Below the pieces are notes generated by a model. That model saw only the letters and a list, made by a program, of their open reading frames with translations, did not search any database and was not told the origin of the DNA. The position numbers were made by a program, and so were the translations under genes. A stretch of DNA of 64,000 nt from Candidatus Kaiserbacteria bacterium (GTDB lineage: Bacteria > Patescibacteriota > Minisyncoccia > Phycocordibacterales > UBA918). The stretch covers positions 448,317 through 512,316 of the forward strand of contig CP064968.1 of the NCBI GenBank assembly GCA_016699245.1, written 5' to 3'. Position 1 is the stretch's first letter; each line of letters opens with the position of its first letter. Shown piece after piece: positions 20,883-63,423 of the stretch.

Positions 20883-21015
20883 GAAAATCCCCTATGTCAA
20901 AGGCGCTGGGGATTATATTTTGAGACCAGGACGGGATTTGAGTCCTACAGACTCCGTTCAGGTTGTAAGATATTTTTTAAAAATATTAACAACCTCTTCA
21001 AATCCCTTGGTCAAG

Positions 21016-21045
21016 AAAAAAACTCCACAGAGTGGAGTTTTTTAC
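21016..21045 (+). terminator. intrinsic terminator of infB-rbfA
   Basis: AAAAACTCCAC-AGA-GTGGAGTTTTTT. Confidence 0.7.
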
Positions 21046-21048
21046 TTG

Positions 21049-21120
21049 AGACCAGGACGGGATTTGAACCCGTGAATGTCGGTTTTGCAGACCGATGCGT
21101 TACCGCTTCGCCACCTGGTC
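21049..21120 (-). tRNA. tRNA-Cys (GCA)
   Basis: Hand-folded cloverleaf: acceptor GACCAGG/CCTGGTC, anticodon loop CTGCAAA, T-arm ACGGGTTCAAATCCCGT. Confidence 0.8.
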
Positions 21121-21227
21121 AAACAAGGGCAATCTACTCTACCATTTACTCCTCAAACTGGAAATTATCTCACTGAATAACGACCATAAATAAAACCCGT
21201 CTAGAAAACTAGTCGTGTTTCATTTTG

Positions 21228-21308
21228 TGCGCGAGAGAGGACTTGAACCTCCATGCCTTGCGGCACCTGCTCCTAAGGCAGGCGTGTCTACCGTTTCACC
21301 ACCCGCGC
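21228..21308 (-). tRNA. tRNA-Leu (TAG), long variable arm
   Basis: Anticodon stem CCTGC/GCAGG, loop CTTAGGA; T-arm GGAGGTTCAAGTCCTCT. Confidence 0.75.
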
Positions 21309-22615: not shown

Positions 22616-22705
22616 TGGTGCCCAGGGCGGGAATCGAACCCGCACGGTCATTTATAAACCACAGGATTTTAAGTCTTGCGCGTCTACCAATTTCGCCACC
22701 CGGGC
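22616..22705 (-). tRNA. tRNA-Leu (TAA), CCA encoded
   Basis: Acceptor GCCCGGG/CCTGGGC, loop CTTAAAA, long variable arm, T-arm CGGGTTCGATTCCCG. Confidence 0.75.
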
Positions 22706-22798
22706 GTGGCGGTATCATAACATAAATTTAATATAACTGCGTACAAGCACTTGTTTTTATGTCATAATTTTAGTACACTCTCAACTGTTCAATTCCAT

Positions 22799-22871
22799 CC
22801 GCCCATAGCTCAGCTGGTAGAGCAGATCGCTCTTAACGATAAGGTCCCAGGTTCGATCCCTGGTGGGCGGA
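22799..22871 (+). tRNA. tRNA-Lys (CTT)
   Basis: Acceptor CCGCCCA/TGGGCGG, D-arm AGCTCAGCTGGTAGAGC, loop CTCTTAA, T-arm CCAGGTTCGATCCCTGG. Confidence 0.7.
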
Positions 22872-22918
22872 CTAATTTAAAAAACCACACAATTTTGTGT
22901 GGTTTTTTAAATTAGTCC
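22869..22918. terminator. 23-bp-arm perfect palindrome right after tRNA-Lys (GGACTAATTTAAAAAACCACACA / TGTGTGGTTTTTTAAATTAGTCC)
   Basis: Read directly; second short hairpin GCGAGCAA-TTTGTT-TTGCTCGC follows at 22923-22945. Confidence 0.65.
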
Positions 22919-22945
22919 GCCCAAGCGAGCAATTTGTTTTGCTCG

Positions 22946-23115
22946 CGGCCAGGGATCGAAAACCTTGCGAGGGATTTTGCGAGTGATAACGAAGCAAAAT
23001 ACCCACAAGGCAAAAACGATTCGTTTTTGAAGGTTGTCGAAATTTGTCAAAATTTCCTACAACCTAAACGGAATCTGTAAGATTTACTGGTCATGTAATG
23101 ACCGATTCCCTGGTG
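22946..23115 (+). repeat. structured repeat element family, copy A (core hairpin 23030-23064; CTGTAAG hairpin at 23069-23083)
   Basis: Closing inverted repeat GGCCAGGGATCG...CGATTCCCTGGTGG; about 90 nt roughly 97% identical to copy B. Confidence 0.6.
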
Positions 23116-23258
23116 GTACGCAATGAAAGAAAATACTAAGAGACTCGTAACGACAAATATACCCAAAATGTACGAAGTGAATAATTATAGTTAGTAATCT
23201 GTGAAGACTAATGATCTCTGTACGCAATGAAGGAAAATACTAAGAAACTCGTGGCGTC
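23115..23258 (+). repeat. two 39-nt direct repeats (23115-23153 and 23220-23258) upstream of tRNA-Leu(CAG)
   Basis: GTACGCAATGAARGAAAATACTAAGARACTCGT...; possible operator duplicate. Confidence 0.4.
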
Positions 23259-23287
23259 TTCAACACCCCTACAGTCTATGCTAAAAT
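23259..23287 (+). promoter_or_regulatory. sigma-70-like promoter of tRNA-Leu(CAG): TTCAAC-N17-TAAAAT
   Basis: -10 ends 10 nt before the tRNA 5' end. Confidence 0.5.
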
Positions 23288-23297
23288 CTCCTCTGTT

Positions 23298-23379
23298 GGG
23301 CGTATGGCGAAATTGGTAGACGCGCACGGTTCAGGTCCGTGAGCCGCAAGGCATGGAAGTTCGAGTCTTCTTACGCCCA
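23298..23379 (+). tRNA. tRNA-Leu (CAG), long variable arm
   Basis: Acceptor GGGCGTA/TACGCCC, anticodon stem CACGG/CCGTG, loop TTCAGGT. Confidence 0.75.
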
Positions 23380-23380
23380 C

Positions 23381-23425
23381 AAAATAACTAATCCTCAGAT
23401 ACTTCTGAGGATTAGTTATTTTTGG
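23381..23425 (+). terminator. terminator hairpin AACTAATCCTCAGA-TACTT-CTGAGGATTAGTT plus T-run
   Basis: Read directly. Confidence 0.7.
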
Positions 23426-23640
23426 TAGAAGACTCGAAGACCTTGTGAGAGATTTTGCGAGTCTCAGTTGCCGGCAGGCAGATGAGACGAAGTAAAATAT
23501 CCACAAGGCAAAAACGATTTGTTTTTGAAGGTTGTCGAAATTTGTCAAAATTTCATACAACCTAAACGGAATCTGTAAGATTTACTGAAACTGTGCCGCG
23601 TTCCAGTGAACGAAAAGTTTCAAGTCCTCTCGCGCCCACC
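23425..23640 (+). repeat. structured repeat element family, copy B (core 23529-23563), ending in a tRNA 3'-end-like GTTTCAAGTCCTCTCGCGCCCAC
   Basis: Begins with antisense of the tRNA-Leu(CAG) T-arm (GTAGAAGACTCGAAGACC); tail CTGTGCCGCGTTCCAGTGAACGAAAAG shared with the 46.7 kb copy. Confidence 0.6.
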
Positions 23641-23646
23641 CTTATA

Positions 23647-23680
23647 AAATCCCCCAAGCGCTTCGCGATTGGGGGATTTT
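23647..23680 (+). terminator. hairpin AAATCCCCCAA-GCGCTTCGCG-ATTGGGGGATTTT
   Basis: Read directly. Confidence 0.6.
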
Positions 23681-23732
23681 GATTCCCTACCCATATTCGA
23701 GAAGAAAAAATAACCTTAAAACACATTTTACC

Positions 23733-23776
23733 AAACTTACCGTATATGTAACACCTGTTACATATACGGTAAGTTT
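23733..23776. repeat. 44-bp perfect palindrome with non-palindromic CC centre (AAACTTACCGTATATGTAACA-CC-TGTTACATATACGGTAAGTTT); related copy at 55726-55763
   Basis: Immediately 3' of trhO stop; could be a terminator, operator or serine-recombinase att-like site. Confidence 0.6.
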
Positions 23777-23782
23777 GATTTC

Positions 23783-24826
23783 CTACCGAACTACAGATTT
23801 GAGTCGATGTTTTTTAAATTGCTCGAGTTTCTTTGTGTGATTATTTTTCACCAGTGTCTTCTTAATTTTTTCTGGGAGTACATCAAAAATCAGGCATTTA
23901 TATGAGCAATACCCTTTCTTCTTTTTCTTGCACTCATCACAACAAATAAAGAGCACGTGACAGGCCTGATTTTTGCAATGAATATGCTCATCACATTTAT
24001 TTTTTGCACATAGATGGCACGTCGCTATCACCTCATCACTGATGCGCTCACCAAGTCGTTCATCAAAGACAAAGTTTTTCCCCTTAAAGCGATTCGGAAG
24101 TCCTTCTTCTTCCACTTGGCGCTTGTAGTCAATAATCCCTCCCTTCAAATGCTTGACGTCAGTAAAACCATTATGACGGAGCCATGCACTTGCCTTTTCA
24201 CAGCGAATGCCGCCGGTACAATAAATCGCGATTTTCTTGTTCTTATGTACCCTAAGCATGTCTGGTGCGACTTTCAATTCCTCACGGAATGTATCCACGT
24301 CTGGTAGAATAGCCCGCTCAAAGTGCCCCACTTCACTCTCATAGCCATTTCGCATGTCAAAAATAACCGCATCGGGGTCATCAATATAGGTGTTCATTTC
24401 TGCAGCACTGAGGTATGCGCCTGTCTTCGTCACATCAAAAGAATCATCATCGAGTCCATCTGCCACGATCTTCGGACGCACCTTGATAGTGAGTTTATAG
24501 AATGACACCACGTCAGTTTCCTCGACCGCAACTTTGTATGGCACCCTCGCAAACTCGGGAATTGATTGCAGATATGCATCAAGTGCGTCAAAGTTTGCTG
24601 TGGGCACATTCATTTGCGCATTAATACCCTCAGATGCCACGTAGATACGCCCCATGCAGTCCAACTCACTCATGCGGAGAAAGAGCGTGTTACGCATCGC
24701 TATAGGGTCACTGAGCCGCACATACCGATAAAACGAGAGTGTCGTGCGTGGAATATGTGCTTCCTGCACCTTTTCCTTCAAAATCTTCCGTGGTGTTAAG
24801 TCTTTTTTCATACCAGTACAGAGCAT
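23783..24826 (-). CDS. trhO: rhodanese-domain tRNA U34 hydroxylase TrhO (YceA/UPF0176) with C-terminal Cys-rich zinc ribbon
   Basis: IYCTGGIRCEKASAWL rhodanese active-site loop. Confidence 0.7.
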   Translation of the reverse strand: MLCTGMKKDLTPRKILKEKVQEAHIPRTTLSFYRYVRLSDPIAMRNTLFLRMSELDCMGRIYVASEGINAQMNVPTANFDALDAYLQSIPEFARVPYKVAVEETDVVSFYKLTIKVRPKIVADGLDDDSFDVTKTGAYLSAAEMNTYIDDPDAVIFDMRNGYESEVGHFERAILPDVDTFREELKVAPDMLRVHKNKKIAIYCTGGIRCEKASAWLRHNGFTDVKHLKGGIIDYKRQVEEEGLPNRFKGKNFVFDERLGERISDEVIATCHLCAKNKCDEHIHCKNQACHVLFICCDECKKKKKGYCSYKCLIFDVLPEKIKKTLVKNNHTKKLEQFKKHRLKSVVR

Positions 24827-28174: not shown

Positions 28175-28531
28175 TTAGAGGGCTCCTGCTGTCTGTTGTA
28201 TCACATCCACAATAATCTTAGCACCGAGGACTATCACACCGCCAACCACTGCCCACAGAAGCGCGGTGCGTGCTTCGGTTACTTTACCAGGGTTACCCTG
28301 TGCAGTCACAAAGAGATACCCTGCGTACATGATGTAGAGAATTATGAGCGGGAGTGCAAAGACGAGGAGGATATCGATAATATTAAGCAAAAACTCCGGA
28401 ATATCTTTTGCTTTAAGCCAATTAATAAATTTTCCATCGTCAGCAAACACAGCGTGCGGTATGTAAAGTGCACTCAATATACATGTATATGTATACAGAC
28501 ATTTTTTCATATTGTTTGGCATGGATGTCAT
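28175..28531 (-). CDS. VirB2/TrbC-like pilin paralog 4
   Basis: C-terminal ~80 aa differ by only 3 residues from paralog 5; N-terminal ~40 aa unrelated. Confidence 0.5.
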   Translation of the reverse strand: MTSMPNNMKKCLYTYTCILSALYIPHAVFADDGKFINWLKAKDIPEFLLNIIDILLVFALPLIILYIMYAGYLFVTAQGNPGKVTEARTALLWAVVGGVIVLGAKIIVDVIQQTAGAL

Positions 28532-28548
28532 GTACGCTATTATTAAAT

Positions 28549-28902
28549 TTACAACGCACGCGCTGTCTGTTGTATCACATCCACAATAATCTTAGCAGCA
28601 AGCACAATCACGCCACCAACCACTGCCCACAGGAGAGCGGTGCGTGCCTCCGTTACTTTACCAGGGTTACCCTGTGCAGTCACAAAGAGATATCCTGCAT
28701 ACATGATATAGAGAATTATGAGCGGGAGCGCGAAAACGAGGAGAATGTCAATGATTTTAAGCAAGAACTCAGGGATGGTCTTTGAACTCAGCGGATTAGT
28801 CAGGGTAGCACCTTGAGCAAAGGTCACAAAAGGTAGATATAAAGGGCTAAGTGTAAATACTCGAATTACATATTTATGTATTTTTGTAGATATAGGCGAC
28901 AT
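28549..28902 (-). CDS. VirB2/TrbC-like pilin paralog 5
   Basis: As paralog 4. Confidence 0.5.
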   Translation of the reverse strand: MSPISTKIHKYVIRVFTLSPLYLPFVTFAQGATLTNPLSSKTIPEFLLKIIDILLVFALPLIILYIMYAGYLFVTAQGNPGKVTEARTALLWAVVGGVIVLAAKIIVDVIQQTARAL

Positions 28903-30233: not shown

Positions 30234-30971
30234 CTATTTCTTATGACAAAGGAGACCGTAGTGGTGGTCACCTGCGGAAAATGTACCTTCACAGGAAAAA
30301 CCTGCCTGCTCAAGAAGACTTCGAGCATCAGTCTCACTAAAAACATCTTCAGGGCGAGGACCAAGACCACCAAATGAATCCGTCCAATCAATGACGAATA
30401 ATTTTCCACCTTTTCGGAGTACGCGCGCCACTTCGGTGAGTGCAGTATCTTTACGGACAAACTGGAAAAGAATGTTTGAAAGAAGACCTGCATCGAGGGT
30501 ACCATCGTTGAATTTTGTACCGCCTGGAGCTTCAATATCGCACCACACAGGTCGTATGTTATTGAGACGCTGCTCTGCTGCTTTGGTACCAAGAGCGTCA
30601 ACAAGATTTTTTTGAATCTCACATGCGTACACTATGCCACTTAAGCCTACGGCACTTGAAAGAGGCTTTAAATATGCTCCACTACCCGCGCCAAAATCTG
30701 CGACGACATCACCTTCCCGCAAATGGAAATGGGTAACGGTATTCTCTGGGTCTACAAACCTTCCAAGTTGGGTAGGATACATATGTACAGTATACAGGGT
30801 CGCAGGGATATCGGTATGGGCAGTAGTGGAAAATGAGCCGGAACTGCAAAGCAGTTCTGGCTCATTTTCACACACTCCCAAACGCGCAGCGCTGAGGAAA
30901 TTTGCTTGACTCCCAAACTTTCCAAAATTGATTGAGTACAAGGTGAGAAGCGAATACTTGGAGCTTCGCAA
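30234..30971 (-). CDS. class I SAM-dependent methyltransferase (true start may be the internal Met near 30782)
   Basis: VADFGAGSGAY motif I; 5' end of the ORF overlaps a repeat element. Confidence 0.65.
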   Translation of the reverse strand: MRSSKYSLLTLYSINFGKFGSQANFLSAARLGVCENEPELLCSSGSFSTTAHTDIPATLYTVHMYPTQLGRFVDPENTVTHFHLREGDVVADFGAGSGAYLKPLSSAVGLSGIVYACEIQKNLVDALGTKAAEQRLNNIRPVWCDIEAPGGTKFNDGTLDAGLLSNILFQFVRKDTALTEVARVLRKGGKLFVIDWTDSFGGLGPRPEDVFSETDARSLLEQAGFSCEGTFSAGDHHYGLLCHKK

Positions 30972-31150
30972 GAGGTTGTCGATATTTTATAAAAATATCA
31001 TACAACCTGAACAGCGACCGTAGGTCGGGCAAGAAAATGAAGACGAGGCGTGAGAAAGTCTGGGAGACTTTCGCAAGACCTTGAACAGTTTCTGTGAAAG
31101 GTTTACCGTCTCTGTAAGAGACAGATGTACGATGAGTCTTCATTTTTGCA
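30942..31150 (+). repeat. structured repeat element family, copy C (core 30973-31008; CTGTAAG hairpin at 31102-31117)
   Basis: GGTGAGAAGCGA lead-in, then the core module, then TTCGCAAGACCTTGAACAG; same modules as the 63.1 kb copy but in swapped order. Confidence 0.6.
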
Positions 31151-31186
31151 GCACAACGAAGTAATCAACAATTTTGGGAAGTTTGG

Positions 31187-33694
31187 TTAGAAATAGACAA
31201 TTGAGGCGATTGCATCCCCCACCCGCATCTTCATCACCTTTACTCCCTGTGTCTGTCTACCGAGTGATGGCACATCCTTCAGTGGGAGTTTAATCACCTG
31301 TCCCTTCTTGCTCATCACAATAAGTTCGCCTTCGGCTTTATCTTCAGCACTCACAATCGCTGCACCCACGACCGTGCCTGTCTTTGAGGTAATTTTAGCA
31401 GTCTTAATACCAGAGCCACCACGCTTTTGGACTTTGTATTCCTTTGCCGGTGTTGTTTTACCAAATCCATTTTCCATCACAACGAGTATTTCGTCACTTT
31501 TACTTTCCTTTGAAAGCACATCTGCAGAAACGATCACATCACCCTTGCCGAGTTTCATTACATTCACTCCAGCCGCAGTGCGTCCCATCTGACGTACATC
31601 ACTTTCCTTAAAGCGGATTGACTGACCCTTTGCCGTGACGAGTGACATCTCATCTCCCTTTCCGACAAATTTTGCAGAGATAAGCGCATCACTATCCTTG
31701 AGCGTAATTGCTATGAGTCCACTACGACGCACATCCTTAAATGATGCTGCATCAGACTTTTTACCCACACCGTCGCGTGTCACGAGTATAAGTGACCAGT
31801 CACCCTGCCATTCTTCCTTGCGTACCGCGAGCACTGAAGTGACTTTTTCTTCCATGGTGAGCGCAAGGAAGTTCATAATAGACTTGCCTTTCGTCGCACG
31901 GCGTCCTTCGGGGATATCATACATCTTAGTTTGATACACCCTGCCTTTATCCGTAAAGAAGAGGAGGTCGCTATGCATTGAGGTAGTAAGGAGTGTGGTC
32001 ACCACATCTTCTTCTTTTGTATCCAAATCCACCACACCCACACCACCGCGCTTTTGTGTACGGTATTCAGATGGGTTGGTGCGTTTTATGTATCCACCTT
32101 GGGTGAGTACGAGCACACTTTCTTCATCCGCAATCAAATCCTCCACACTGAGCATCTTTACACCACCTTTCACTATCTTGGTGCGACGGTCGTCACCAAA
32201 CTTTTCAGCCACTTCAGCCAAATCAGTTTTAATGATGGAAAGCATCTTCTTGCGACTTGCGAGAATTGCTTGTAATTCCTTAATAAGTGCCTGCACTTCT
32301 TTCAATTCATCTTCAATTTTCTTTCGTTCAAGACCTGCAAGTTTTTGGAGACGCATATCGAGAATCGCCTGTGCTTGAATAGCAGAAAACTTAAACTCCT
32401 TCATAAGGCCCGCATGCGCGGTCGGCACGTCCTTTGAGGCGCGAATGAGTTTGATAATAGCATCGATATGGTCAAGCGCTTTTTTGAGTCCGAGAAGGAT
32501 ATGCTCACGGTCTTGTGCCTTCGTGAGATCAAACTGTGTACGACGACGAATCACCTCCTCACGGTGTTTGATGTATTCTTCTAAGATTGCTTTGAGTGAC
32601 AGTGTCTGTGGCACACCATTCACGAGTGCCACCATGTTGTAGTGGAATGTATCTTCAAGTTGCGTGTGTTTGTAGAGTTTGTTGAGGACCGTTTGTGGCT
32701 GTGCACCAGTCTTTAATTCAACCACAACACGAATGTCGGTGGTGGACTCGTCACGCAAATCGCGAATACCCTCGATGCGCTTGTCGCGGACGAGGTCGGC
32801 TATCTTTACGAGCATGTCTGCCTTGTTGACGCGGTATGGAATGGAGGTAATGACAATCGAGAAATTTCCTTTCTTGTCTTCAATAATCTCTGCCTCACCA
32901 CGTACCACCACTCCTCCACGACCATTGGCATACGCGTGTGCAATGTCTTTTTGATTGAAGGCAATACCGCCCACAGGGAAATCTGGCCCTTTCACAAATT
33001 GGAGCAAGTCATTCGTGGATGCTTCTGGATTCTCGATAAGGTGCTCCACCGCCGCAGCTACTTCACGGAGATTATGTGGCGGGATATTCGTCGCCATACC
33101 TACCGCAATACCCAACGTACCTGCAAGGAGCAGGTTTGGTACCGCTGCAGGGAGTACTTCTGGCTCTTTTTTCGTTCCATCAAAGTTGGGTCGCCAACTG
33201 ACGGTATCTTTTTCCAAATCTCGGAGTAATTCTTCCGCGATTTTAGACATTTTTGCTTCAGTGTAACGATACGCAGCAGCACTGTCTCCATCGATAGAAC
33301 CAAAGTTACCTTGTCCCAACACGAGGGGGTAGCGTGTATTGAAATCTTGTGCGAGTTTTACCATTGCGTCATATACCGACGCGTCACCATGTGGGTGAAA
33401 ACTACCGAGTACATCTCCCACTACCGTTGCAGATTTTTTAAAACGGGCACCTGAGGTCAGACCATTGAGACGCATTGAGTACAGGATGCGTCTATGTACC
33501 GGCTTCAGGCCGTCACGCACATCAGGAAGCGCACGTTGCGTAATCACCGACATCGCATAGTCGAGATATGATGTGCGCATTTCACCCGTAATATCCTGCG
33601 TGATTACGTTTTGATGCCCCAAAATAGGCAATGCTTCCTGTTTCTTTGGGTCATTATTATCTCCCGCACTCGATGTTTTTTTCTTTGAAGGCAT
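31187..33694 (-). CDS. gyrA: DNA gyrase subunit A
   Basis: [12 protein letters not shown] and AAMRYTE-like motifs, 835 aa. Confidence 0.9.
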
Positions 33695-43642: not shown

Positions 43643-43720
43643 GAAACAGCGAGGCGGGATCGCGAACACTTAGTAGATTTTGAACGTAGTGAAAAAATAT
43701 ACTTAGTGATTTGTGATCGG
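43643..43720 (+). repeat. ~80-nt repeat (CAGCGAGGCGGGATCGCGAACACTTAGTAGATTTT...ACTTAGTGA) homologous to 63535-63617
   Basis: Two copies with a GCGAGGCGGGRTCG core and paired CTTAGTA...ACTTAG segments; both in gene 3' regions. Confidence 0.5.
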
Positions 43721-46665: not shown

Positions 46666-46696
46666 TATATCATAGCATGGAGGGTGTGATGGACTG

Positions 46697-46840
46697 GACG
46701 CGAGAGGGGGGATTCGAATCTTTTCGTTCACTGGAACGCGGCACAGATTCTGTTCAGGTTGTATGATAGTTTCTCCTTGCAGTCGAAACTTTCGACAACC
46801 TTTTCGAATCCCCCGCGTAAGCTCCCCCGGAGCTTACTCT
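46697..46840 (-). repeat. structured repeat element family, copy D (inverted; core 46756-46801) bounded by a 12-bp inverted repeat GGGGGATTCGAA/TTCGAATCCCCC and ending in a tRNA 3'-end-like TCCCCCCTCTCGCGTCCA
   Basis: Shares the CTGTGCCGCGTTCCAGTGAACGAAAAG tail with copy B. Confidence 0.6.
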
Positions 46841-46980
46841 CTTCCGCCAACAAAATATGCCCCTTGCGGGGCTATTTTGTATTGGCAGGCATCGTAGGTT
46901 CAGTATCAGAGCGGTGAGATGATGTAAGGATATTTGAGGATTGTTTTAAGAGTTGAAATGAGGTATGTGGGTTGGAGTAT

Positions 46981-47778
46981 TTAAATCCTTTCACTGGGAC
47001 TTGGAACTGTAGCGGCATGTGCTTCAACTAATTCAAAAGTGTATAAACCGTCTTCGTCCTTAAAAAATCTTGCCATAGATGGTAATTCCTCATCGGAAAG
47101 CTTTGTGAATTCTTTCGTACCGTAGTTATGATACTGGCCCATAAGATATTCAATCCTGCCCGAAGTGATACCAGGAATCTGTCTCTTTATATTCTCTCCC
47201 ATCGGATGCTGTTCGTCAGGTTCATTATCAAAAGTAATCGGTTCAGTCTTCGTGTGAAGATTTCCTGCAACTACGAGAGTCGGTACGTCTGAAAGATTGT
47301 TGAGAATATTTTCCGCCATAGCCGCATCTCGCGCATTCCATCCGTATCCACCAGAACCTCCGTCAAAACAGACAAGTCCTTCAAGCATTCCTTCGGACTT
47401 AAGCTTCTTAAGGAGAGCAAAGTGGCCTGCGGTGATGCGTCCATCCGGACTATCCTTAATAGCATCAAAATCAAGCTCTCCCGATTGCAGATACCTTTCA
47501 GCGACTGTTTTAAGCTCTGGCTCCCATTCTAGGGCAAGTTGGCGGAAGCCGAATTTCTTGAACAGTGTGTAAATTACATCTGCATTCTCTTTTACTCCGT
47601 GCATTTCGCCCAAGATGAACAGTTTGGTGTTTCCTATACTCTCCGCAAGTTCTTGAATTGACTGTTTATCAAATATGGTGGGAACTTCTTCAACTAAAAC
47701 GGAAGAAATCGTCTCAATAAATGAGTTTTTATCACCTTCCAGATTCCTTTCTTGTTTTGGCTTTTCAAACTTTTCCAT
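46981..47778 (-). CDS. ChaN/Tiki/TraB-superfamily protein (GEMHG motif), function unknown
   Basis: ILGEMHG motif; weak. Confidence 0.35.
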   Translation of the reverse strand: MEKFEKPKQERNLEGDKNSFIETISSVLVEEVPTIFDKQSIQELAESIGNTKLFILGEMHGVKENADVIYTLFKKFGFRQLALEWEPELKTVAERYLQSGELDFDAIKDSPDGRITAGHFALLKKLKSEGMLEGLVCFDGGSGGYGWNARDAAMAENILNNLSDVPTLVVAGNLHTKTEPITFDNEPDEQHPMGENIKRQIPGITSGRIEYLMGQYHNYGTKEFTKLSDEELPSMARFFKDEDGLYTFELVEAHAATVPSPSERI

Positions 47779-47830: not shown

Positions 47831-47964
47831 TAAGTTCTATTGGCGGAAGAGGGGGGATTCGTCCTGACGGTCACTAATTCGCTGACGCTCATAAGTGCCG
47901 CGGGACACGACTCGCCGGCCCAGAGGGGCCCCGGCTCCGTCGTTCGAATCCCCCCTCTTCTCGC
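47831..47964. repeat. inverted-repeat element with arms copied from the tRNA-Ser 3' end: TGGCGGAAGAGGGGGGATTCG...(84 nt GC-rich)...CGAATCCCCCCTCTTCTCGC
   Basis: 16-bp perfect arms at 47836-47851 and 47945-47960; the left arm is the exact complement of an acceptor/T-stem 3' end plus CCA (primer-binding-site-like). Confidence 0.6.
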
Positions 47965-48008
47965 AACATGCAACAAACCCAATGCTTTCGCATTGGGTTT
48001 GGCAGTTG

Positions 48009-48095
48009 CGGAAGAGGGGGGATTTGAACCCCCGATCGAGTCTCCCCGATGCCGGTTTTCGAAACCGGTGCACTAAACCACTATGCGACTCTTCC
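48009..48095 (-). tRNA. tRNA-Ser (CGA), long variable arm
   Basis: Acceptor GGAAGAG/CTCTTCC, anticodon stem CCGGT/ACCGG, loop TTCGAAA, T-arm GGGGGTTCAAATCCCCC; terminator hairpin at 47970-48000. Confidence 0.75.
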
Positions 48096-48386
48096 AAATG
48101 TATGAACTATTAAACTAGCATTTTTTCCAATTTTTCGGTAGTATAGCGAGGTTCGGATTGTATTGTCCCTTACTAGGACGAACGAGGTGTCATGTAGGAG
48201 TTTTACTCATACTTGCACCGAGTGACGTCCTAGCAAGCTCTGCTTGCAGGGACTGTACACCTTGTCGATATTTTTCTTCAGCTCACGCCTTGAAAAATAT
48301 CAGGCAAGGTCTTGCGAAAGTCCCCCAGACTTTCTCACCCATCGTCATCGACGATGTGGCCGTACAAAATTCAAAGAATTTCGTCC

Positions 48387-48603
48387 GGCCCCATCGTCTA
48401 ACGGTGGCCAGAAATTAAAGAGCGCAAGCGATTATAATTTCTGAGTGGCCTAGAAGTTACTGAGCGCAAGCGACAATAACTTCTGGTCTGCCTACTTTTT
48501 CTTTCAAAATGAAAAAGTAGGCCAAGTCACTTTTTCTTCTTCCCAGAAGAAAAAGTGACGCACACGGCAAGACTAAAACTACAATGATGCAAAAGGTACA
48601 TAC
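48387..48603 (+). repeat. tRNA-Glu 5' fragment (19 nt, 48387-48405) followed by a four-hairpin cassette (48409-48443, 48452-48484, 48490-48522, 48526-48558)
   Basis: GGCCCCATCGTCTAACGGT is identical to tRNA-Glu nt 1-19; hairpins 1-2 carry GAGCGCAAGCGA loops; hairpins 3-4 have 12-15-bp stems. Confidence 0.6.
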
Positions 48604-48675
48604 GGCCCCATCGTCTAACGGTTAGGACATCAGGTTTTCATCCTGGAAATCGGAGTTCGATTCTCCGTGGGGTCA
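48604..48675 (+). tRNA. tRNA-Glu (TTC)
   Basis: Acceptor GGCCCCA/TGGGGTC, anticodon stem TCAGG/CCTGG, loop TTTTCAT, T-arm CGGAGTTCGATTCTCCG. Confidence 0.7.
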
Positions 48676-50368
48676 CATCCAGAGATTTATCATCTCTATT
48701 CTCATCACTTACCTTGAAAAACAAGGATATTTTAGGTGTTCCACTAAGTACTTCTTTGTAGGTCGGAAACTCCAAGAATAGTATCTTGTAAATTGCCATC
48801 TGTTCGGCATAACTACTTATATCTAGGAACATATCTATAGGGTGTTCCATTAGATTTTTTGAGTACTCTAAGAACAAGGTGACTTCTTCGTAACTCAACT
48901 CAATTTTCTTCCTTTCACCCTGCACTTGTCGTAAATCCATACTTAGTCTTTCAAAATCCCTCTCCATCTCGTCTTTCACCAACTCAGAGTTTGATTTCTT
49001 GATTGCAGTCAGCGTTTCTCTCAGTTCAGATTGGATTCCTGTGATTCTCTGGTTTATTACAATTTGAGTATCAAGCGATTTCTCCTGTTCTTGTTTATGT
49101 TTATGAGTAAGGACTTTTTTTAAGATAGAATGGTACTTATCACTAAACTTAATTTTACTCAAAAAGGTCATCATTGCCTTATCAACCTCACTTTGAGGTT
49201 TCCCGTAATATTTATGTGTACGGCTACAATGATAAAAAGAATATTTCTCCTTATTTTTGCTTGTCGATGGACTTGCTAAAAAAGGTTTTTTACAGACATC
49301 GCACAAGACTACATTCTTAAACAGGTAATCTTTACGGAACTTCTGTCTTCTCTTGAGTATTTTCTCAGGGTTTAAGTCGTAAAAGAGTTTGATTTTGTTT
49401 TCTGGTAATTCCTCAACATACACTTTGCCCTTGTTGGCTTGATTAAACTTCTCGATGCTAACCAATCCCTTGTATTGGGTCTTTGTGATTATTTTCTTTT
49501 TTTGAATCTTGCCCCAATTCTCAATATTGACTCCGCAGTAGATAGGATTTTTCCTGTACTTCTGCATTTGCTTGATTGTAAGTTTATTGCCTACTTTTAC
49601 ACCGATTATTCTTTTGTCACCCTTTTTTCCATTCCAAAGTTTCCTATCTCTTGATTTGTAGCCAAGCGAGTTTATGTGGTCTACGATTTCTTGTTCTGTT
49701 AAAACTCCCTCAACGGTTTTATCAAAAAGAGCAATGATTTGAGGTGCTTCCTGCTCGTGTGGAAGTTGTATTGTTTTTTGCTTTCCGTCATTAGCAAGAA
49801 TAACGACATTTTTATAACCATAATTAGCTTCTCTTAACTTGAAGCCAAGACTAGCTCTTGAGAAGCTCGTGTTTACAGTTCTAGTAAGGATATTTGCAAC
49901 ATCTTCTTTGCCCATCTCTGCAAGCAGTATTTCAGTGATACGACTTGGGCTCTTATTACTCCAATCAAAGGAAATGCCAAGATGTTCAAGAGTGTTTGAT
50001 ATTGGCTGGATTATATTTTGACTATCACGAAGTTCAACACCAAGACTTGCTAATTGGCTTTTTATTAAAAGATATTCTTCACTACCAGAGCGAGTACTCC
50101 TATCAATCCTGTTTATAACAAAATACTTTATTTTGTTAGGATTTTTCTTAATTAAATCAATCAGTTCATTATATTTTGGTCTTTTTGCTACTTCAACTTT
50201 TCTACCAGTAAAGATTTCTCTACTTACTTTCCCATCAGGAAAAAGAGTCCAGTGATTATTCTCGATATGACGCTCAATAGCTTTTATTTGATTCTCTAAG
50301 CCGTCACCCTTAAGCTGACTAGGGTCACTGATTCGAGCATATCCAATTGCGTAGATGGGATGGGTCAT
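48638..50368 (-). CDS. large serine recombinase (phage-type integrase)
   Basis: N-terminal YARISDPSQ catalytic Ser motif, recombinase domain, zinc ribbon CDVCKK...YHCSRT, coiled coil; last 13 codons are antisense to the tRNA-Glu T-arm. Confidence 0.85.
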   Translation of the reverse strand: MTHPIYAIGYARISDPSQLKGDGLENQIKAIERHIENNHWTLFPDGKVSREIFTGRKVEVAKRPKYNELIDLIKKNPNKIKYFVINRIDRSTRSGSEEYLLIKSQLASLGVELRDSQNIIQPISNTLEHLGISFDWSNKSPSRITEILLAEMGKEDVANILTRTVNTSFSRASLGFKLREANYGYKNVVILANDGKQKTIQLPHEQEAPQIIALFDKTVEGVLTEQEIVDHINSLGYKSRDRKLWNGKKGDKRIIGVKVGNKLTIKQMQKYRKNPIYCGVNIENWGKIQKKKIITKTQYKGLVSIEKFNQANKGKVYVEELPENKIKLFYDLNPEKILKRRQKFRKDYLFKNVVLCDVCKKPFLASPSTSKNKEKYSFYHCSRTHKYYGKPQSEVDKAMMTFLSKIKFSDKYHSILKKVLTHKHKQEQEKSLDTQIVINQRITGIQSELRETLTAIKKSNSELVKDEMERDFERLSMDLRQVQGERKKIELSYEEVTLFLEYSKNLMEHPIDMFLDISSYAEQMAIYKILFLEFPTYKEVLSGTPKISLFFKVSDENRDDKSLDVTPRRIELRFPG

Positions 50369-51539: not shown

Positions 51540-52475
51540 TTATCGCCAAAACATCAACTGCTTAAAAAAGCCAACCACTTTCTGCACAAAATCCTCTTGT
51601 GGTTGCTCTGGCGTAGGTATTTCTTCAACCACTGGAAGTTGAGTAACTGGAGTTGTTGTAGGAGCCACTAAAACCTCCGACAGTTCTTTTGGCTCAGGTG
51701 GAGCTATATCAGGCGTCACAAGTGGTTTTTGAGCTATTGCGGGTGATACCACTGACACCTCCTTTGGAAGCGACTCAAGATACTCATCGTGCTGTGCTGT
51801 ACCCTCCTTTCCGTTCGGGTATTTTTGGTAATACAGAACCGCAATTCTGTCAGAAATATCAGGTCTGCTCGCTTTTATTCTCCCAAAGAAGTCTCTGGCG
51901 TCTGCGAGGGATAGTGAATCCATATAGACAAATCCTTCGTAAATATCAGCATCAGTGAATACCTCAGGGGTACTGTATGACTCCATCTGCTCATCAAGGA
52001 GCTCTTGATATTCCTCAATCTGTGAGAGGTTTTGCTTTTGTAACTCTAGGATTTGCTGACGTAATTTTTCAGCCTCTTTCTCAGCTTTTGCAAGAGCAGA
52101 GACTTCTGACGAGTGCTCATCTTTCTCGTCTTCAAGTTCACTTATTTGGGCATCGTACTTTGCATCAATCTCAGCAAGCTTGGCATCGAGTTGATTCCCG
52201 ATACCATAGCTTCCGTACAGTCCCGTAACATATCGCTTCTCCGTATCACGCTCTGCTTCAAGTGCTTTAATACGAGCATTGATAGTATCGACTGAAACCT
52301 GAGGACTGTTTGCGATTTGTGCCTCAAGCGTTTGGAGTCGATACTCCAGAGCTGAGAGTGCTTCATTCTGCTTTATCCCTACATCAGCAGGGAGATAGTT
52401 GTAGTCGGTGGCGTGTGCTACTGAGAAAAGACATAGGAAAAGTAATGTCGATATTGAAAAGGTTGTTTTTTGCAT
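51540..52475 (-). CDS. secreted coiled-coil protein
   Basis: Start moved to MQKTTFSISTLLFLCLFSVAHA (signal peptide); long EAEK-rich coiled coil. Confidence 0.45.
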   Translation of the reverse strand: MQKTTFSISTLLFLCLFSVAHATDYNYLPADVGIKQNEALSALEYRLQTLEAQIANSPQVSVDTINARIKALEAERDTEKRYVTGLYGSYGIGNQLDAKLAEIDAKYDAQISELEDEKDEHSSEVSALAKAEKEAEKLRQQILELQKQNLSQIEEYQELLDEQMESYSTPEVFTDADIYEGFVYMDSLSLADARDFFGRIKASRPDISDRIAVLYYQKYPNGKEGTAQHDEYLESLPKEVSVVSPAIAQKPLVTPDIAPPEPKELSEVLVAPTTTPVTQLPVVEEIPTPEQPQEDFVQKVVGFFKQLMFWR

Positions 52476-52502
52476 AGGGATGGGTTTGCAATTTAGGCAG
52501 GA

Positions 52503-52610
52503 ACATAAAGCTCCCCGCCAGTGATGCCTTGCGACACCTGTACCTGTTTCCAGATACAACCCATCCCTGAGTGCTCTGACGAGGAGCTTTATATCAGGGA
52601 TGGGTTTTAT
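52503..52610 (-). promoter_or_regulatory. leader region with mutually exclusive hairpins (attenuator or riboswitch-like)
   Basis: AAAGCTCCCCGCCAG (52507-52521) pairs with CTGACGAGGAGCTTT (52576-52590); overlapping stem AACCCATCCCTGA (52557-52569) / TCAGGGATGGGTT (52595-52607). Confidence 0.35.
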
Positions 52611-52738
52611 TTGTACCGTATCTTGCCGAGGCAAGACCTTAGGTAACTATGTTGTGGCTGGTAATTTTATTTCATCTGTGGATTGATAATATCAAAAAAT
52701 CCCGCTATAGACCAGCTTATTTTCTGCTTTATTTTTTA

Positions 52739-55423: not shown

Positions 55424-55725
55424 TTCTACTACCTATCTGTTTGGAGTTTGCTGAAGCAAGATTTGTTAATTGAGCTTAATTTGCTACACATTCTCTATCT
55501 GCAAGAAGCTTGAGTTGTAGGCTTGGACACCAGTACAAGATTTCTTGCCACCTAATAACCTCATCCTGTAAGGTGTTCCAGTCAAGGCTCTGTAGGGTCA
55601 TGCAAGCAATCGCCGCCTTCGGGCGGCTTTTGCATGACCCCACGAGTAAACAGTTTGGGAGACTGTTTACGGGAGAATCGAAGCTGATACCTACCACCAA
55701 TTTCTATGACACCTATTTCTGCATG

Positions 55726-55763
55726 CTTACCGTATATTGTACACCTGTTACATATACGGTAAG
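55726..55763 (+). terminator. near-palindrome CTTACCGTATATTGTACA-CC-TGTTACATATACGGTAAG plus T-run; paralog of 23733-23776
   Basis: Read directly. Confidence 0.6.
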
Positions 55764-55821
55764 TGCTTTTTTAGTGCATAAAAAAATCCTGGGGTGCGCC
55801 CATGCACACATTACAACATTA

Positions 55822-56515: not shown

Positions 56516-56540
56516 GAAAACTACCTAGTTCATCAAAACC

Positions 56541-56578
56541 AAGGTTAAACCTCGGGCTAGCCCGAGGTTTAACCTTTT
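56541..56578 (+). terminator. 17-bp-stem palindrome AAGGTTAAACCTCGGG-CTAG-CCCGAGGTTTAACCTT plus T; identical copy at 59658-59697
   Basis: Read directly. Confidence 0.75.
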
Positions 56579-56661
56579 GCTGGAGGGCTCTGTACATGAT
56601 GCACTCTATGTGCTCTACTAGTGACTAGTAGCACTTTTACAATCATTCAAGGAGCATTGCC

Positions 56662-57664: not shown

Positions 57665-57749
57665 ATATCACCATATAACCGATACTATAATTTGCACTTT
57701 AGTGTATACTGCTCACTTAAATTATTATTACAATACTGAAATATACGTT

Positions 57750-59176
57750 ATGAAGAAGTGTTTTAACTCAAAAACTAAAATCGTCGCGACGCTCGGGCCT
57801 AATTCCACAGACGTAAAAGTAATCGAAAAGATGATTCTTTCGGGACTTAATGTGGCACGTATCAATATGAGCCATGGTGATTATACCGAGCATGCGCTCA
57901 AGATTAAAAATGCGCGCGCCGCTGCCGCAACTCTGAAACGACCACTTGCAATTCTTCAGGACCTCTCTGGCCCGAAAATTCGCATCGGTGACTTTGCAAC
58001 GGAGACGGTGACGCTCGTCCCCGGAGAAAAAATTACGCTCACCACAGAAAAATGCGTGGGGACGGTGTCTCGTGTATCACTCAACTACGCAAAACTTCCC
58101 AAGGAAGTAGAGCCCGGAATGGCGATTTTCCTCAATGATGGCAAATTAAAACTTGTGGTTGACTCATGCACCGACACCGAAATAGTAACCACTATCATTC
58201 ACGGAGGCACGATTCGCGGACGACGCGGAGTGAATGTACCCGATGCAAATCTCTCTATCTCTTCTCTCACACCAAAAGACAAAAAGATCTCGTGTGGGGA
58301 CTCACACAGAATCCTGACTTTGTTACTCTTTCCTTTGTGCGAAATGCAGCAGACATTCATCTGCTTCGAAAACTCATTAACAAGGACAAGAAACGACAAA
58401 TCATGATTGTTGCAAAAATTGAGACGAAGTATGCTATCGAAAACTTGCAGGAAATTATCGATGCAACCGATGCAGTGATGGTAGCTCGTGGCGACCTTGC
58501 TATTGAAGTTCCTCCAGAAAAGGTACCTCTTCTCCAAAAGCGCATCATTCGTGCTGCAAACCTTGCAGGAAAGCCAGTCATTACTGCCACACAGATGCTC
58601 GACTCAATGAAGACAGAGGCAACACCTACGCGTGCTGAAGTAAGCGATATCGCAAACGCAATCCTCGATGGTACTGATGCCATCATGCTTTCTGATGAAA
58701 CCGCAATCGGTGTTCATCCTGAGCGTCCTGTGGAGGTAATGTCACGAGTTGCGCGTGAAGTAGAGACAGATGCATTCTTTAGCGAACGAATGACCCAGTG
58801 GGAATTCAAAGCAAAAGAGACGTACGAGGCACTTGGAAAGTCGGTTGCAAAGACAGTTATCACCACCGATGCAAAGGCTATTGTAACCTTTAGTGAAAGT
58901 GGTCTCACAAGCCGTATGGTAGCAAGATACAAGCCGATTGTGCCAATCTTTGTACTCACACCCAACAAGGCAGCATATGCTCAGAGTCTTATATCTTTCG
59001 GATGTGAACCAGTACTTATTCATAAAGTACAGAATCTCGCTGATGCGCAAAAGGTGGCGCGTAAGGTACTCTCTGAGTACAATGTCGCGACTAAGGGGGA
59101 TGTGTTTGTACTCGGCGCGGGAATTCCCTTTGGAAGTTCTGGTGCAACCAATATGATGCTCGTTGAGCGAATCTAA
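57750..59176 (+). CDS. pyk: pyruvate kinase, interrupted by a 1-nt frameshift in the A5 run at 58281-58285
   Basis: KIVATLGP, NMSHG; one extra A restores LTPKDKKDLVWGLTQNPDFVTLSFVR. Confidence 0.85.
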
Positions 59177-59657: not shown

Positions 59658-59697
59658 CCAAGGTTAAACCTCGGGCTAGCCCGAGGTTTAACCTTGG
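59658..59697. terminator. palindrome CCAAGGTTAAACCTCGGG-CTAG-CCCGAGGTTTAACCTTGG (copy of 56541-56576)
   Basis: Read directly. Confidence 0.75.
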
Positions 59698-59707
59698 TCT
59701 GGATATA

Positions 59708-63109: not shown

Positions 63110-63342
63110 GCGCGGTTAGCTCAGCTGGTAGAGTGAGAAATGGGTGAGAAGCGAGTTTACGCAGCTTCGCAAGACCTTGAGCAGTCTCTGCGAAAGGTGT
63201 ACAGCGACTGTAAGTCGGGGACCCATTTCGCAAGAGGTTGTCGATATTTTGACGTAAGGAAAAATATCATACAACCTGAACAGGTCCTGTTAAGGACTCA
63301 CATTGAGCGCAAAGGTGAGAAAAAGATACAAATGAATAGTAT
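63110..63342 (+). repeat. tRNA-Val 5' fragment (24 nt, 63110-63133) followed by repeat element copy E (core 63235-63277; CTGTAAG hairpin 63196-63208)
   Basis: GCGCGGTTAGCTCAGCTGGTAGAG is identical to tRNA-Val nt 1-24; then GGTGAGAAGCGAG, TTCGCAAGACCTTGAGCAG and core modules. Confidence 0.6.
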
Positions 63343-63415
63343 GCGCGGTTAGCTCAGCTGGTAGAGCATCACATTGACATTGTGGGGGTCACAGGTTCAA
63401 GTCCTGTATCGCGCA
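63343..63415 (+). tRNA. tRNA-Val (GAC)
   Basis: Acceptor GCGCGGT/ATCGCGC, anticodon stem TCACA/TGTGG, loop TTGACAT, T-arm ACAGGTTCAAGTCCTGT. Confidence 0.75.
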
Positions 63416-63423
63416 CCGAGGGA

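Follow-up and report, generated by a model that had tools for sequence, protein, structure and literature searches.

A family of structured hairpin repeats linked to tRNA genes in Patescibacteria

Structured repeats in a Kaiserbacteria genome segment

The 64,000-nucleotide stretch of a Candidatus Kaiserbacteria genome analyzed here (assembly GCA_016699245.1, contig CP064968.1, positions 448,317 to 512,316; hereafter the window) contains about a dozen structured units, which border the majority of its tRNA genes. The repeats that compose these units are a real family of ~100-nt hairpin modules devoid of any protein, found across the Patescibacteria, or candidate phyla radiation (CPR) bacteria. 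A preliminary description of this DNA had proposed five copies of a core hairpin, and all five are found (23031, 23529, 30973, 46792-46801 on the minus strand, and 63235). Six instances of the core pattern AGGTTGTNNA-N10-40-TACAACCTRAAC are present in the window, against none in 100 dinucleotide shuffles, the additional sixth core lying downstream of tRNA-Cys (20956-20995, minus strand). A covariance model derived from 54 copies, of which 53 belong to other genomes, reports eight window matches at E<1e-4, on the plus strand at 30942-31029, 63203-63299, 23498-23584, 23008-23086, and 31047-31123, and on the minus strand at 20939-21026, 46715-46829, and 48238-48341, with much lower scores for opposite-strand matches. 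Variant units are present in the window besides these eight.

Comparison of about 105 copies yields the anatomy of the conserved module (~70-110 nt), which comprises an optional hairpin P1a, a hairpin P2, a GAAC or GUAC linker, and a hairpin P3. When present, P1a has 8-9 bp and a loop that is usually UGGGA (typically GUGA-GAAAGUC-UGGGA-GACUUUC-GCAAG). The base of P2 is a 7-bp helix (AGGUUGU/ACAACCU) with a bulged C opposite AU, surmounted by a covarying upper stem, GAUAUUUU/AAAAUAUC, and by a variable tip; this alpha type follows the pattern AGGUUGU-C-GA…UC-AU-ACAACCU. The linker after P2 is GAAC (AG), and P3 combines a stem of 4-6 bp with a YGUAR loop, mostly CUGUAAG. A second P2 subtype, beta, displays in the window the base ACCUUG/CAAGGU and a GUAC linker, and in relatives the bases CCGUUC/GAACGG and CCGAUG/CAUCGG, the base being again covariant. 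Since the GAWAUUUU…AAAAUAUC stem is common to both subtypes, the second is homologous to the first. The flanking modules that had been described as shared between copies are indeed shared, as indicated by the window repeat list and by direct reading, and resolve into the second P2 subtype, the P1a hairpin (GUGAGAA…CGCAAG), and a hairpin inserted into the P3 loop, CUGU[GCCGCGUUCCAGUGAACGAA]AAG.

Across the 54 sequences of the model, 96.7% of the cells are paired, against 83% after shuffling and ~45% with the partners slid. Changes on both sides occur at 4/4 P3 pairs and 6/6 upper-P2 pairs (131 cells), which none of 500 shuffles matched. The small hairpins with differing yet complementary stems noted in the preliminary description are thus present and covary strongly, and this covariation supports the selection on a folded single strand that had been deduced from them, without implying that this strand is RNA. 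Three window units, described below, also fold better than their shuffled counterparts (unit A, z=-5.7; unit B, z=-7.1; unit C, z=-7.5). Counted without trimming bias, the stem pairs amount to 867 Watson-Crick, 17 G-U, 8 A-C, and 61 others, that is ~91% Watson-Crick and ~2% G-U, the excess of G-U over A-C being not significant (17 vs 8, p=0.11). With stems that are almost purely Watson-Crick and contain few G-U pairs, no preference for RNA over DNA emerges, and folding would be possible for either strand. The fold energies of the two strands, when compared, are inconsistent from stem to stem.

Association with tRNA gene ends

The family is linked to tRNA genes, as had been proposed: of 119 copies, 55 have a tRNA within 300 nt, 44 of them on the same strand as the tRNA and 11 on the opposite one. 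In copies at tRNA genes, the module caps a long hairpin whose arms are called here X' and X. X is a direct copy of the last 17-23 nt of the adjacent tRNA, located right after P3 and beginning within the T loop or at its border. X', its reverse complement, precedes P2 and covers the complement of the T loop, of the T-stem 3' strand, and of the acceptor 3' strand; it is usually interrupted, exactly at the T-stem/acceptor junction, by a bulge or a P1a hairpin. Such arms derive from many tRNA identities, and the unit order is the intact tRNA ending in X, a palindromic terminator (sometimes accompanied by genes), X', the module, X, and the old flank. Among 109 tRNAs of the fetched loci, which were chosen for having modules so that these frequencies are inflated, the 3' end recurs downstream in direct orientation for 55, in inverted orientation for 47, and in both for 35 (2-5 in controls), while the 5' end recurs upstream for 26. 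Within X'…X intervals, the module is in forward orientation in 16 cases and reversed in 2. Together with the same-strand bias relative to tRNAs, this ratio means that orientation matters, and it fits an integral folded site better than random filler. No orientation bias is observed relative to protein genes.

In the window, the X'/X architecture is found at six tRNAs: Lys (unit A), Leu(CAG) (unit B), Cys (unit F), Ser(CGA), a tRNA-Ser-type end (unit D), and Glu, the latter truncated. Unit A (22873-23122, plus strand) lies downstream of tRNA-Lys(CUU) (22799-22872). Its palindromic terminator (22864-22923) overlaps the end of tRNA-Lys and appears in the repeat list as a 29-nt perfect palindrome. 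The X' arm is made up of TCCGCCCA (22916-22923), an inserted hairpin (22925-22946), and CCAGGGATCGAA (22949-22960), and leads to a P2-beta with the base ACCTTG…CAAGG (22962-23010). An alpha module is inserted next (hairpin 23011-23029, P2 23031-23065, AAAC, and P3 23070-23085), followed by a second P3 (23088-23103) and by X, GATTCCCTGGTGGTACGCA (23104-23122), a degenerate tRNA-Lys 3' end. Unit B (23381-23639, plus strand), downstream of tRNA-Leu(CAG) (23298-23380), is similarly organized, with a palindromic terminator (23381-23423), X' TGGTAGAAGACTCGAAG (23423-23439), a P2-beta (23440-23508), an inserted alpha module (23509-23583), a P3 whose loop contains an inserted hairpin (23586-23621), and X AAGTCCTCTCGCGCCCAC (23622-23639). 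The alpha modules of units A and B are 96% identical over 101 nt, both being placed between P2-beta and P3. The X of unit B has the sequence of the 3' end in the other tRNA-Leu(CAG) allele, that of L121 and L124 (L numbers designate loci fetched from other genomes), and from this match we take it to be the displaced ancestral tRNA-Leu(CAG) end. A crude consensus search reports no sigma70-like promoter before unit A or B, both of which stand behind tRNA terminators.

Two sequence features accompany these units. A GTACGCAATGAARGAAAATACTAAGARACTCGT motif (ACGYAGTGAA…TACTTAG in relatives) is found at 23116-23148, 23220-23252, and 43682-43714, as well as in L030, L046, and L121, just downstream of tRNA-Lys-type units and ahead of the tRNA-Leu(CAG) promoter. 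A 39-nt perfect palindrome, CTTACCGTATATGTAACACCTGTTACATATACGGTAAG, exists in two near-identical copies (23735-23773 and 55726-55764), each shortly downstream of a tRNA-linked unit or X' arm.

Unit F (20921-21047, minus strand), which was absent from the preliminary description, is located downstream of tRNA-Cys (21048-21120, minus strand) and is composed of a terminator, X' GACCAAGGGATTTGAAG (21012-20996), a P2-alpha with GAAC (20995-20956), P3 (20955-20940), and X AAATCCCGTCCTGGTCTCA (20939-20921), which matches the 3' end of tRNA-Cys exactly. The unit at 47841-48007 (minus strand), immediately downstream of tRNA-Ser(CGA) (48008-48095, minus strand), comprises a terminator, X' TGCGAGAAGAGGGGGGATTCGAAC (47965-47942), a different cargo consisting of a GC-rich hairpin, and X GAATCCCCCCTCTTCCGCCA (47860-47841). 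Unit D (46695-46849, minus strand) lies 1.15 kb downstream of the same tRNA, from which it is separated by an open reading frame (ORF, 46981-47778) and a terminator. It contains X' (TGGCGGAAGAGAG, a hairpin, and CGCGGGGGATTCGAA), an alpha module, a P3 with a loop insert, and, as X, a tRNA-Ser-like 3' end (GATTCGAATCCCCCCTCTCGCGTCCA). Of the five placements given in the preliminary description, those at the tRNA-Lys, tRNA-Leu(CAG), tRNA-Val, and gyrA sites hold, while the copy assigned to a "VIT promoter region" is unit D, the distal end of a tRNA-Ser-type unit, with arms that copy a tRNA-Ser 3' end. Lastly, a truncated unit at 55594-55683 (plus strand) comprises GGGTCA, a terminator, and X' of tRNA-Glu, itself built from TGACCCCACG (55635-55644), a P1a hairpin with a UGGGA loop (55645-55670), and GGGAGAATCGAAG (55671-55683); neither a module nor an X follows this X' (55635-55683).

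Distribution and absence of known relatives

A scan of species-representative genomes returned at least 120 loci, and the statements that follow rest on the matches listed. More than 100 independent Patescibacteria assemblies carry the module, among them Saccharibacteria, Kaiserbacteria, Paceibacterota/Parcubacteria, and Minisyncoccia. Nearly all of the listed matches belong to metagenome-assembled genomes of Patescibacteria, often with several contigs or copies per genome, and the few non-CPR ones are without P3 and inside coding sequence. The window is itself syntenic with Saccharibacteria contigs, a synteny that by itself would place it in that lineage. Assembly duplication, which the preliminary description had named as one possible refutation, does not account for the repeats, because both the copies and their flanks vary and more than 100 independent assemblies contain the family.

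A scan of the window with Rfam 15 at gathering scores reports only tRNAs and LOOT, and at E<=10, over 22700-23800 and 30850-31250, only chance matches of the miRNA or snoRNA type on palindromes. Viral contigs, PLSDB plasmids, and GenBank phages returned no module match. Within 1.5 kb of the 119 copies in other genomes no recurrent protein family is found, the neighbors being only housekeeping genes such as EF-G, with no mobility gene. Full-text literature searches found no description of these elements, and a paper on group I introns in Patescibacteria tRNA genes does not mention them (PMC13011429). Several identities were set aside: a hammerhead, hairpin, or twister-type ribozyme, as there is neither a core match nor an Rfam match; a tRNA-like cloverleaf, as the stem lengths do not fit; a promoter formed by P2, as the spacing is variable; a retroelement with a primer-binding-site-like arm, as the arm contains no CCA complement and is not general; and split or permuted tRNA genes, as an intact gene is always adjacent.

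Gain, loss, and nesting of units

Related loci differ by the presence of units. In L124, tRNA-Leu(CAG) is directly followed by its native flank, with no unit. In L128, L129, L121, and the window, a segment composed of the tRNA 3' part, a palindromic terminator, X', P2, and P3 stands before the old tRNA-Leu(CAG) 3' end and the flank of L124. L128 and L129 have 100% identical flanks and differ by one tandem unit; in their arrays, X-terminator-X' is identical from unit to unit and the modules are different. The 3' side of tRNA-Val is empty in the window and occupied by a unit in L005, and L093 differs from L092 by a module-bearing pseudo-copy upstream of an identical tRNA-Met. Arrays are found at L128/L129, at L030, where two units are stacked, and at L022. 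The latter is also gene-carrying (tRNA-His, unit, three genes, terminator, X', module, and X), as are L029, with about 2 kb of cargo, and the window, with tRNA-Ser, a unit, an ORF, and unit D. Modules are nested in units A, B, and E of the window, and in L012, where an alpha module takes the place of P1a; L030, L068, and L129 contain reversed copies.

Truncated pseudo-copies of tRNAs can also contain modules, the insertion point being positions 6-8, the D loop, positions 24-26, the anticodon stem, or the T loop. These insertions replace 1-4 nt and produce no target duplication, and the pseudo-copies carry a promoter-bearing flank as well. In L008, the pseudo-copy reaches into the first bases of the putative group I intron of the real tRNA-Asn gene, and therefore arose by duplication at the DNA level. 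This tRNA-Asn gene (L008, 7295-7640), which was missed by ARAGORN, is split by a ~260-nt insertion at anticodon-loop position 35/36, corresponding to the group I intron site reported for Patescibacteria tRNA genes (PMC13011429). The modules resemble these introns in residing in the same organisms and the same genes, as in L008, where a module-bearing pseudo-copy lies upstream of the putative 35/36 intron, but they are only 70-110 nt long, do not match the group I intron model, and are found only in truncated pseudo-copies with 1-4 nt replaced. They are consequently not spliced introns of functional genes: the interrupted copies are truncated and stand beside an intact gene, 1-4 nt are missing, and reversal is possible, as in L030.

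As a separate observation, tRNA-Leu(UAG) and tRNA-Cys are each inverted in place, with their order kept, in L121/L122/L129 as compared with the window (21048-21308) and L126, which suggests inversions between inverted tRNA-end copies.

Other units and features of the window

Unit C (30912-31185, plus strand) is downstream of gyrA and antisense to it. It contains two tandem modules, C1 of alpha type (30942-31029) and C2 of beta type (31047-31123), each with a P1a hairpin, and is closed by a long non-tRNA inverted repeat (30912-30930/31168-31185); C2 has its own 11-bp closing helix. Module G, of beta type (48238-48341, minus strand; 32.6 bits, E=9e-6), is upstream of tRNA-Ser(CGA) and consists of P1a GUGAGAAAGUCUGGGGGACUUUCGCAAG, P2 ACCUUG…CAAGGU, GUAC, and a variant P3. 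Unit E (63110-63306, plus strand) is a truncated tRNA-Val pseudo-copy followed by the intact tRNA-Val(GAC) (63343-63417). Its left end (63110-63133) copies tRNA-Val nt 1-24 and its right end, TCACATTGA (63298-63306), tRNA-Val nt 27-35. Between them is an alpha module, with P1a arms (63134-63144/63220-63234), P2 (63235-63277), GAAC, and P3 (63282-63297), and a complete beta module (63145-63217) is nested inside its P1a loop. A related phenomenon occurs at 48385-48603 (plus strand), where a copy of tRNA-Glu nt 1-19 (48387-48405) and four unrelated hairpins precede the intact tRNA-Glu (48604-48676). Another recurrent hairpin family, AGAAATTAnnGAGCGCAAGCGAnnATAATTTCT, stands in tandem between the tRNA-Glu 5' fragment and tRNA-Glu (48410-48493), and is also present in L032 and L109; its tip, GAGCGAAGCGA, is similar to some P2 tips.

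The 3' half of tRNA-Glu is overlapped by the 3' end of a gene encoding a large serine recombinase (48638-50368, minus strand; 576 residues, Resolvase N-terminal domain). This gene begins a ~7-kb low-GC island (0.37-0.41), extending to ~55.7 kb, whose ORFs are mostly unannotatable and which is probably an integrated element. The tRNA-Glu X' described above (55635-55683) lies at its far end, where a displaced tRNA-Glu 3' end was looked for and not found. The island also contains a LOOT RNA (RF03000; 52523-52645, minus strand), which scores 74.7 bits where the gathering score is 46.4 and either lies at the 5' end of the ORF 51540-52634 or overlaps this ORF.

Elsewhere in the window, a 40-nt palindrome, CCAAGGTTAAACCTCGGGCTAGCCCGAGGTTTAACCTTGG, is present in two copies (56526-56584 and 59658-59710) on either side of the genes for sigma-70 and pyruvate kinase. 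The latter is divided between two overlapping plus-strand ORFs, one for the N-terminal part of the barrel (57702-58406) and one for its C-terminal part and the C-terminal domain (58166-59176), which could be due to a frameshift, a pseudogene, or a sequencing error. The left edge (12-971) consists of three tandem 366-nt repeats that are 73-75% identical, and a 374-nt tandem duplication (28175-28821) covers paralogous small genes that match type IV secretion system pilin-like genes of the syntenic L124.

A proposed folded mobile cassette docked at tRNA genes

From the directly observed anatomy, covariation, distribution, insertion and deletion differences, arrays, and nesting, we tentatively favor, at a confidence somewhat short of calling it probable, the view that the repeats are non-coding, structure-dependent mobile cassettes of Patescibacteria, whose folded arms would mimic the end of a tRNA gene and which would be recombined by an enzyme acting in trans. 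The cassette would be recombined as a folded single strand, with the X':X stem imitating the duplex 3' part of the tRNA gene and the module as its tip. Strands would then be exchanged within the T loop or at its edge, thereby inserting a new tRNA 3' end, a terminator or genes, X', and the module, and pushing the old tRNA 3' end (X) downstream. Such an exchange would give the order tRNA[X]-content-X'-module-X-old flank, whereas with a duplex attP X' and X would abut. The tRNA would remain intact and open to repeated hits, which would account for the arrays, since a rebuilt tRNA can be hit again. A trans-acting recombinase, which would be conserved across Patescibacteria, would probably read features of P2, GAAC, and P3. 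Modules may also move or be copied alone into the loops and junctions of other hairpins, into tRNA pseudo-copies, and into other modules.

A close parallel in organization is offered by integrons. As in attC sites, two helical arm segments surround an unpaired or bulged center and are closed by a terminal structure, and the order is target, cassette content, left arm, terminal structure, and right arm. As with integron cassettes, tandem arrays contain differing units, some of them gene-less, with a conserved structure and variable arm sequences. In contrast, the RYYYAAC/GTTRRRY boxes of attC are not found in the units, whose arms are tRNA-derived (e.g. GTTCAAGTCC…) and whose P2 base (AGGTTGT/ACAACCT) is off consensus. 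The terminal structure, variable in attC, is here the conserved module; an intI/attI platform is missing, with many different tRNA genes acting as docks instead, and the cassettes are mostly reduced to a terminator. No tyrosine recombinase is present in the scanned window ORFs or recurrently near units. A tRNA-anchored, integron-like system, in which small and sometimes gene-bearing cassettes would be captured at the T loops of many tRNAs via a folded single-stranded site, its P2-GAAC-P3 tip being read by a superphylum-wide recombinase or host factor, is a form of the cassette reading that we hold to be doubtful.

The folded attP(+) of CTXphi, recombined by XerCD, is likewise a folded single strand with a stem imitating the chromosomal target, dif in that case, and its predicted order (target copy, short segment, inverted arm, rest, and target copy) is that of tRNA[X]-terminator-X'-module-X. 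The target of the units is instead the T loop and 3' end of a tRNA, not dif, there is no phage genome, and the units span only 130-250 nt. Integrative elements that target tRNA genes and their integrase-less derivatives, such as cis-mobilizable elements (CIMEs), tycheposons (bioRxiv 10.1101/2020.12.28.424599), and tRNA gene fragments (PMC9897764), share the direct repeats of a tRNA part flanking the insert, the regeneration of the tRNA, and a tandem accretion that leaves stacks of partial tRNAs. The units differ from them in being tiny and without ORF or integrase, the only recombinase being in the tRNA-Glu island of the window, and in possessing an inverted tRNA-end copy, a conserved structured module that separates it from the direct one, and module-bearing pseudo-copies on the 5' side.

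Several observations weigh against this cassette mechanism. No recombinase is tied to the elements: tblastn finds no homolog of the serine recombinase, the only recombinase in the window, in the other 129 loci, and on this ground that enzyme is rejected as a general agent. Minimal units of ~130-250 nt would be very small circles. As arm sequences are tied to individual tRNAs, a matching X/X' pair, or else a copying step, is required in every lineage, and T-loop integration does not account for modules in the 5' parts of tRNA pseudo-copies. The arms carry no integron consensus boxes, and no third arm copy is found near stand-alone modules with non-tRNA closing helices, by an exact-k-mer method that missed the closing helices in many copies. 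Finally, Saccharibacteria and Paceibacteria-type lineages have a nearly identical P2 base, GAAC linker, and P3 loop, a degree of conservation that is uncommon among selfish repeats and would fit a host function as well.

Alternative explanations

This last point leads to the possibility, which we regard as unlikely, of a functional structured RNA family linked to tRNA genes. Its members would be transcribed by read-through or co-transcription, the P1/P1a/P2/P3 junction would bind a conserved cellular factor, and the role might be in tRNA processing, stability, or regulation, with the arms giving tRNA-like ends or sequestering a tRNA fragment. The covariation, the same-strand bias (44 vs 11 within 300 nt of tRNAs), arms that reproduce the acceptor helix of the neighboring tRNA, and a P2 base, GAAC linker, and P3 loop that are deeply conserved among distant Patescibacteria are all consistent with this role, as is the persistence of units at orthologous tRNA-Leu(CAG), tRNA-Cys, and tRNA-Lys sites with compensatory P2-base changes (ACCUUG/CAAGGU vs CCGUUC/GAACGG). 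Against it, units are placed behind palindromic tRNA terminators, a terminator belongs to each array unit, and no promoter-like site is found before A or B. Orientation relative to protein genes is unbiased, unit C is antisense to the gyrA operon, and some copies are reversed. G-U pairs at ~2% of stem positions, not significantly above A-C, are atypical for RNA helices; moreover, the cargo varies between close relatives at one site and there is no Rfam relative.

A rather improbable alternative regards the units as scars of integrase islands. Serine or tyrosine integrases with a quasi-palindromic attP would hit the tRNA T loop and leave an attR in which X' abuts X; these unstable perfect palindromes would be filled at their center by hairpins copied during break repair or template switching, and deletions would shrink the islands to terminator-only units. 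The window itself offers an example of the kind, with the serine-recombinase island abutting tRNA-Glu and carrying the tRNA-Glu X' at its far end, but this recombinase is missing from the other 129 loci. Gene-carrying insertions flanked by X repeats, module-less X-X' palindromes in L076, L043, L105, and L046, an X'-small hairpin-X arrangement at tRNA-Lys in L121 and L128, and the non-module cargo of the window tRNA-Ser unit and of the L121 tRNA-Cys unit are likewise as this view would have them, and L049 is a deletion derivative between GGGATTT repeats. In contrast, the 16:2 orientation of modules within X'…X arms is not random, X' is consistently an imperfect arm with a hairpin or bulge at one fixed junction, the units of an array share an identical X-terminator-X', and filler DNA is not expected to keep its sequence across a superphylum.

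The preliminary description had suggested a novel small RNA family, a miniature inverted-repeat transposable element (MITE), or IS200/IS605-like mini elements, of which the MITE comes closest. The repeats are small, non-coding, and multi-copy, with presence/absence differences, nesting, arrays, and inversions, but conserved terminal inverted repeats, a fixed target duplication, and a recurrent insertion sequence (IS) near the copies are missing. Indeed, the inverted repeats of MITEs are conserved among copies and shared with an autonomous IS, whereas the unit arms differ and equal the 3' end of the neighboring tRNA and its complement; where MITEs have a target duplication of fixed length, tRNA-linked units are flanked by 17-23-nt tRNA-end copies. 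The repeats also resemble repetitive extragenic palindromic (REP) sequences and their bacterial interspersed mosaic elements (BIMEs), Correia, RUP, and Rickettsia palindromic elements, and mitochondrial hairpin and double-hairpin elements (e.g. PMC2800124), all of them non-coding, about 100 nt long, multi-copy, hairpin-forming, and intergenic; these small palindromic repeats and mitochondrial elements likewise invade structured RNA genes or their copies and nest within one another. They are set apart from such repeats and from MITEs by a module core conserved superphylum-wide rather than in one genus, by their systematic coupling to tRNA-end copies, and by modules without conserved terminal inverted repeats or fixed target duplication.

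In IS200/IS605-type mini elements, a fixed target of 4-5 nt is combined with subterminal hairpins at both ends, whereas the module junctions differ (T|A at 8/9, D loop, 24-26, and T loop). REPs are imperfect palindromes of 20-40 nt with a 5' GTAG, and the REP-associated tyrosine transposase (RAYT) gene is flanked by them, while the units have several hairpins, span 70-250 nt, and carry GUAR in the P3 loop. The complements of the CAAG and GAAC flanking P2, CTTG and GTTC, are target tetranucleotides of IS91, which would be a lead towards IS91-like elements. Mobilization by HUH enzymes as single-stranded DNA, whether as IS200/IS605-type palindrome-associated transposable elements, omega-RNA relics, REP/BIME with RAYT, or IS91-like elements, would suit hairpin-rich, non-coding, multi-copy repeats that insert into loops of foldable DNA and have GUAR in the P3 loop (its reverse complement being TTAC-like), but it is very improbable, and the IS200/IS605-like suggestion is not supported, as no TnpA, TnpB, IscB, or RAYT-like ORF is found among the Pfam-scanned window ORFs and no recurrent family near the 119 copies, the insertion junctions vary with 1-4 nt of target replaced and no constant tetranucleotide, arms copied from the target are not made by HUH families, and Rfam reports no match to IS605-orfB or HEARO-type RNAs.

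Conclusions

The repeats described here form a widespread structured family with an unusual, regular relation to tRNA gene ends, which is apparently undescribed. In kind, we class it with small non-coding mobile repeats and with folded-site cassettes, in a new form. The genomes of Patescibacteria rank among the smallest and most streamlined in bacteria, and mobile elements are poorly known in this superphylum. If the modules are functional RNAs, they would make up a large new tRNA-linked RNA class. The covariance model can be used at once for annotation, and flags tRNA mis-annotation and assembly breaks in CPR metagenome-assembled genomes. If the repeats are mobile cassettes, they would represent a mechanism of gene capture and genome plasticity in Patescibacteria, would explain many partial tRNA genes and local inversions, and would point to an undiscovered recombinase with structure-based specificity.

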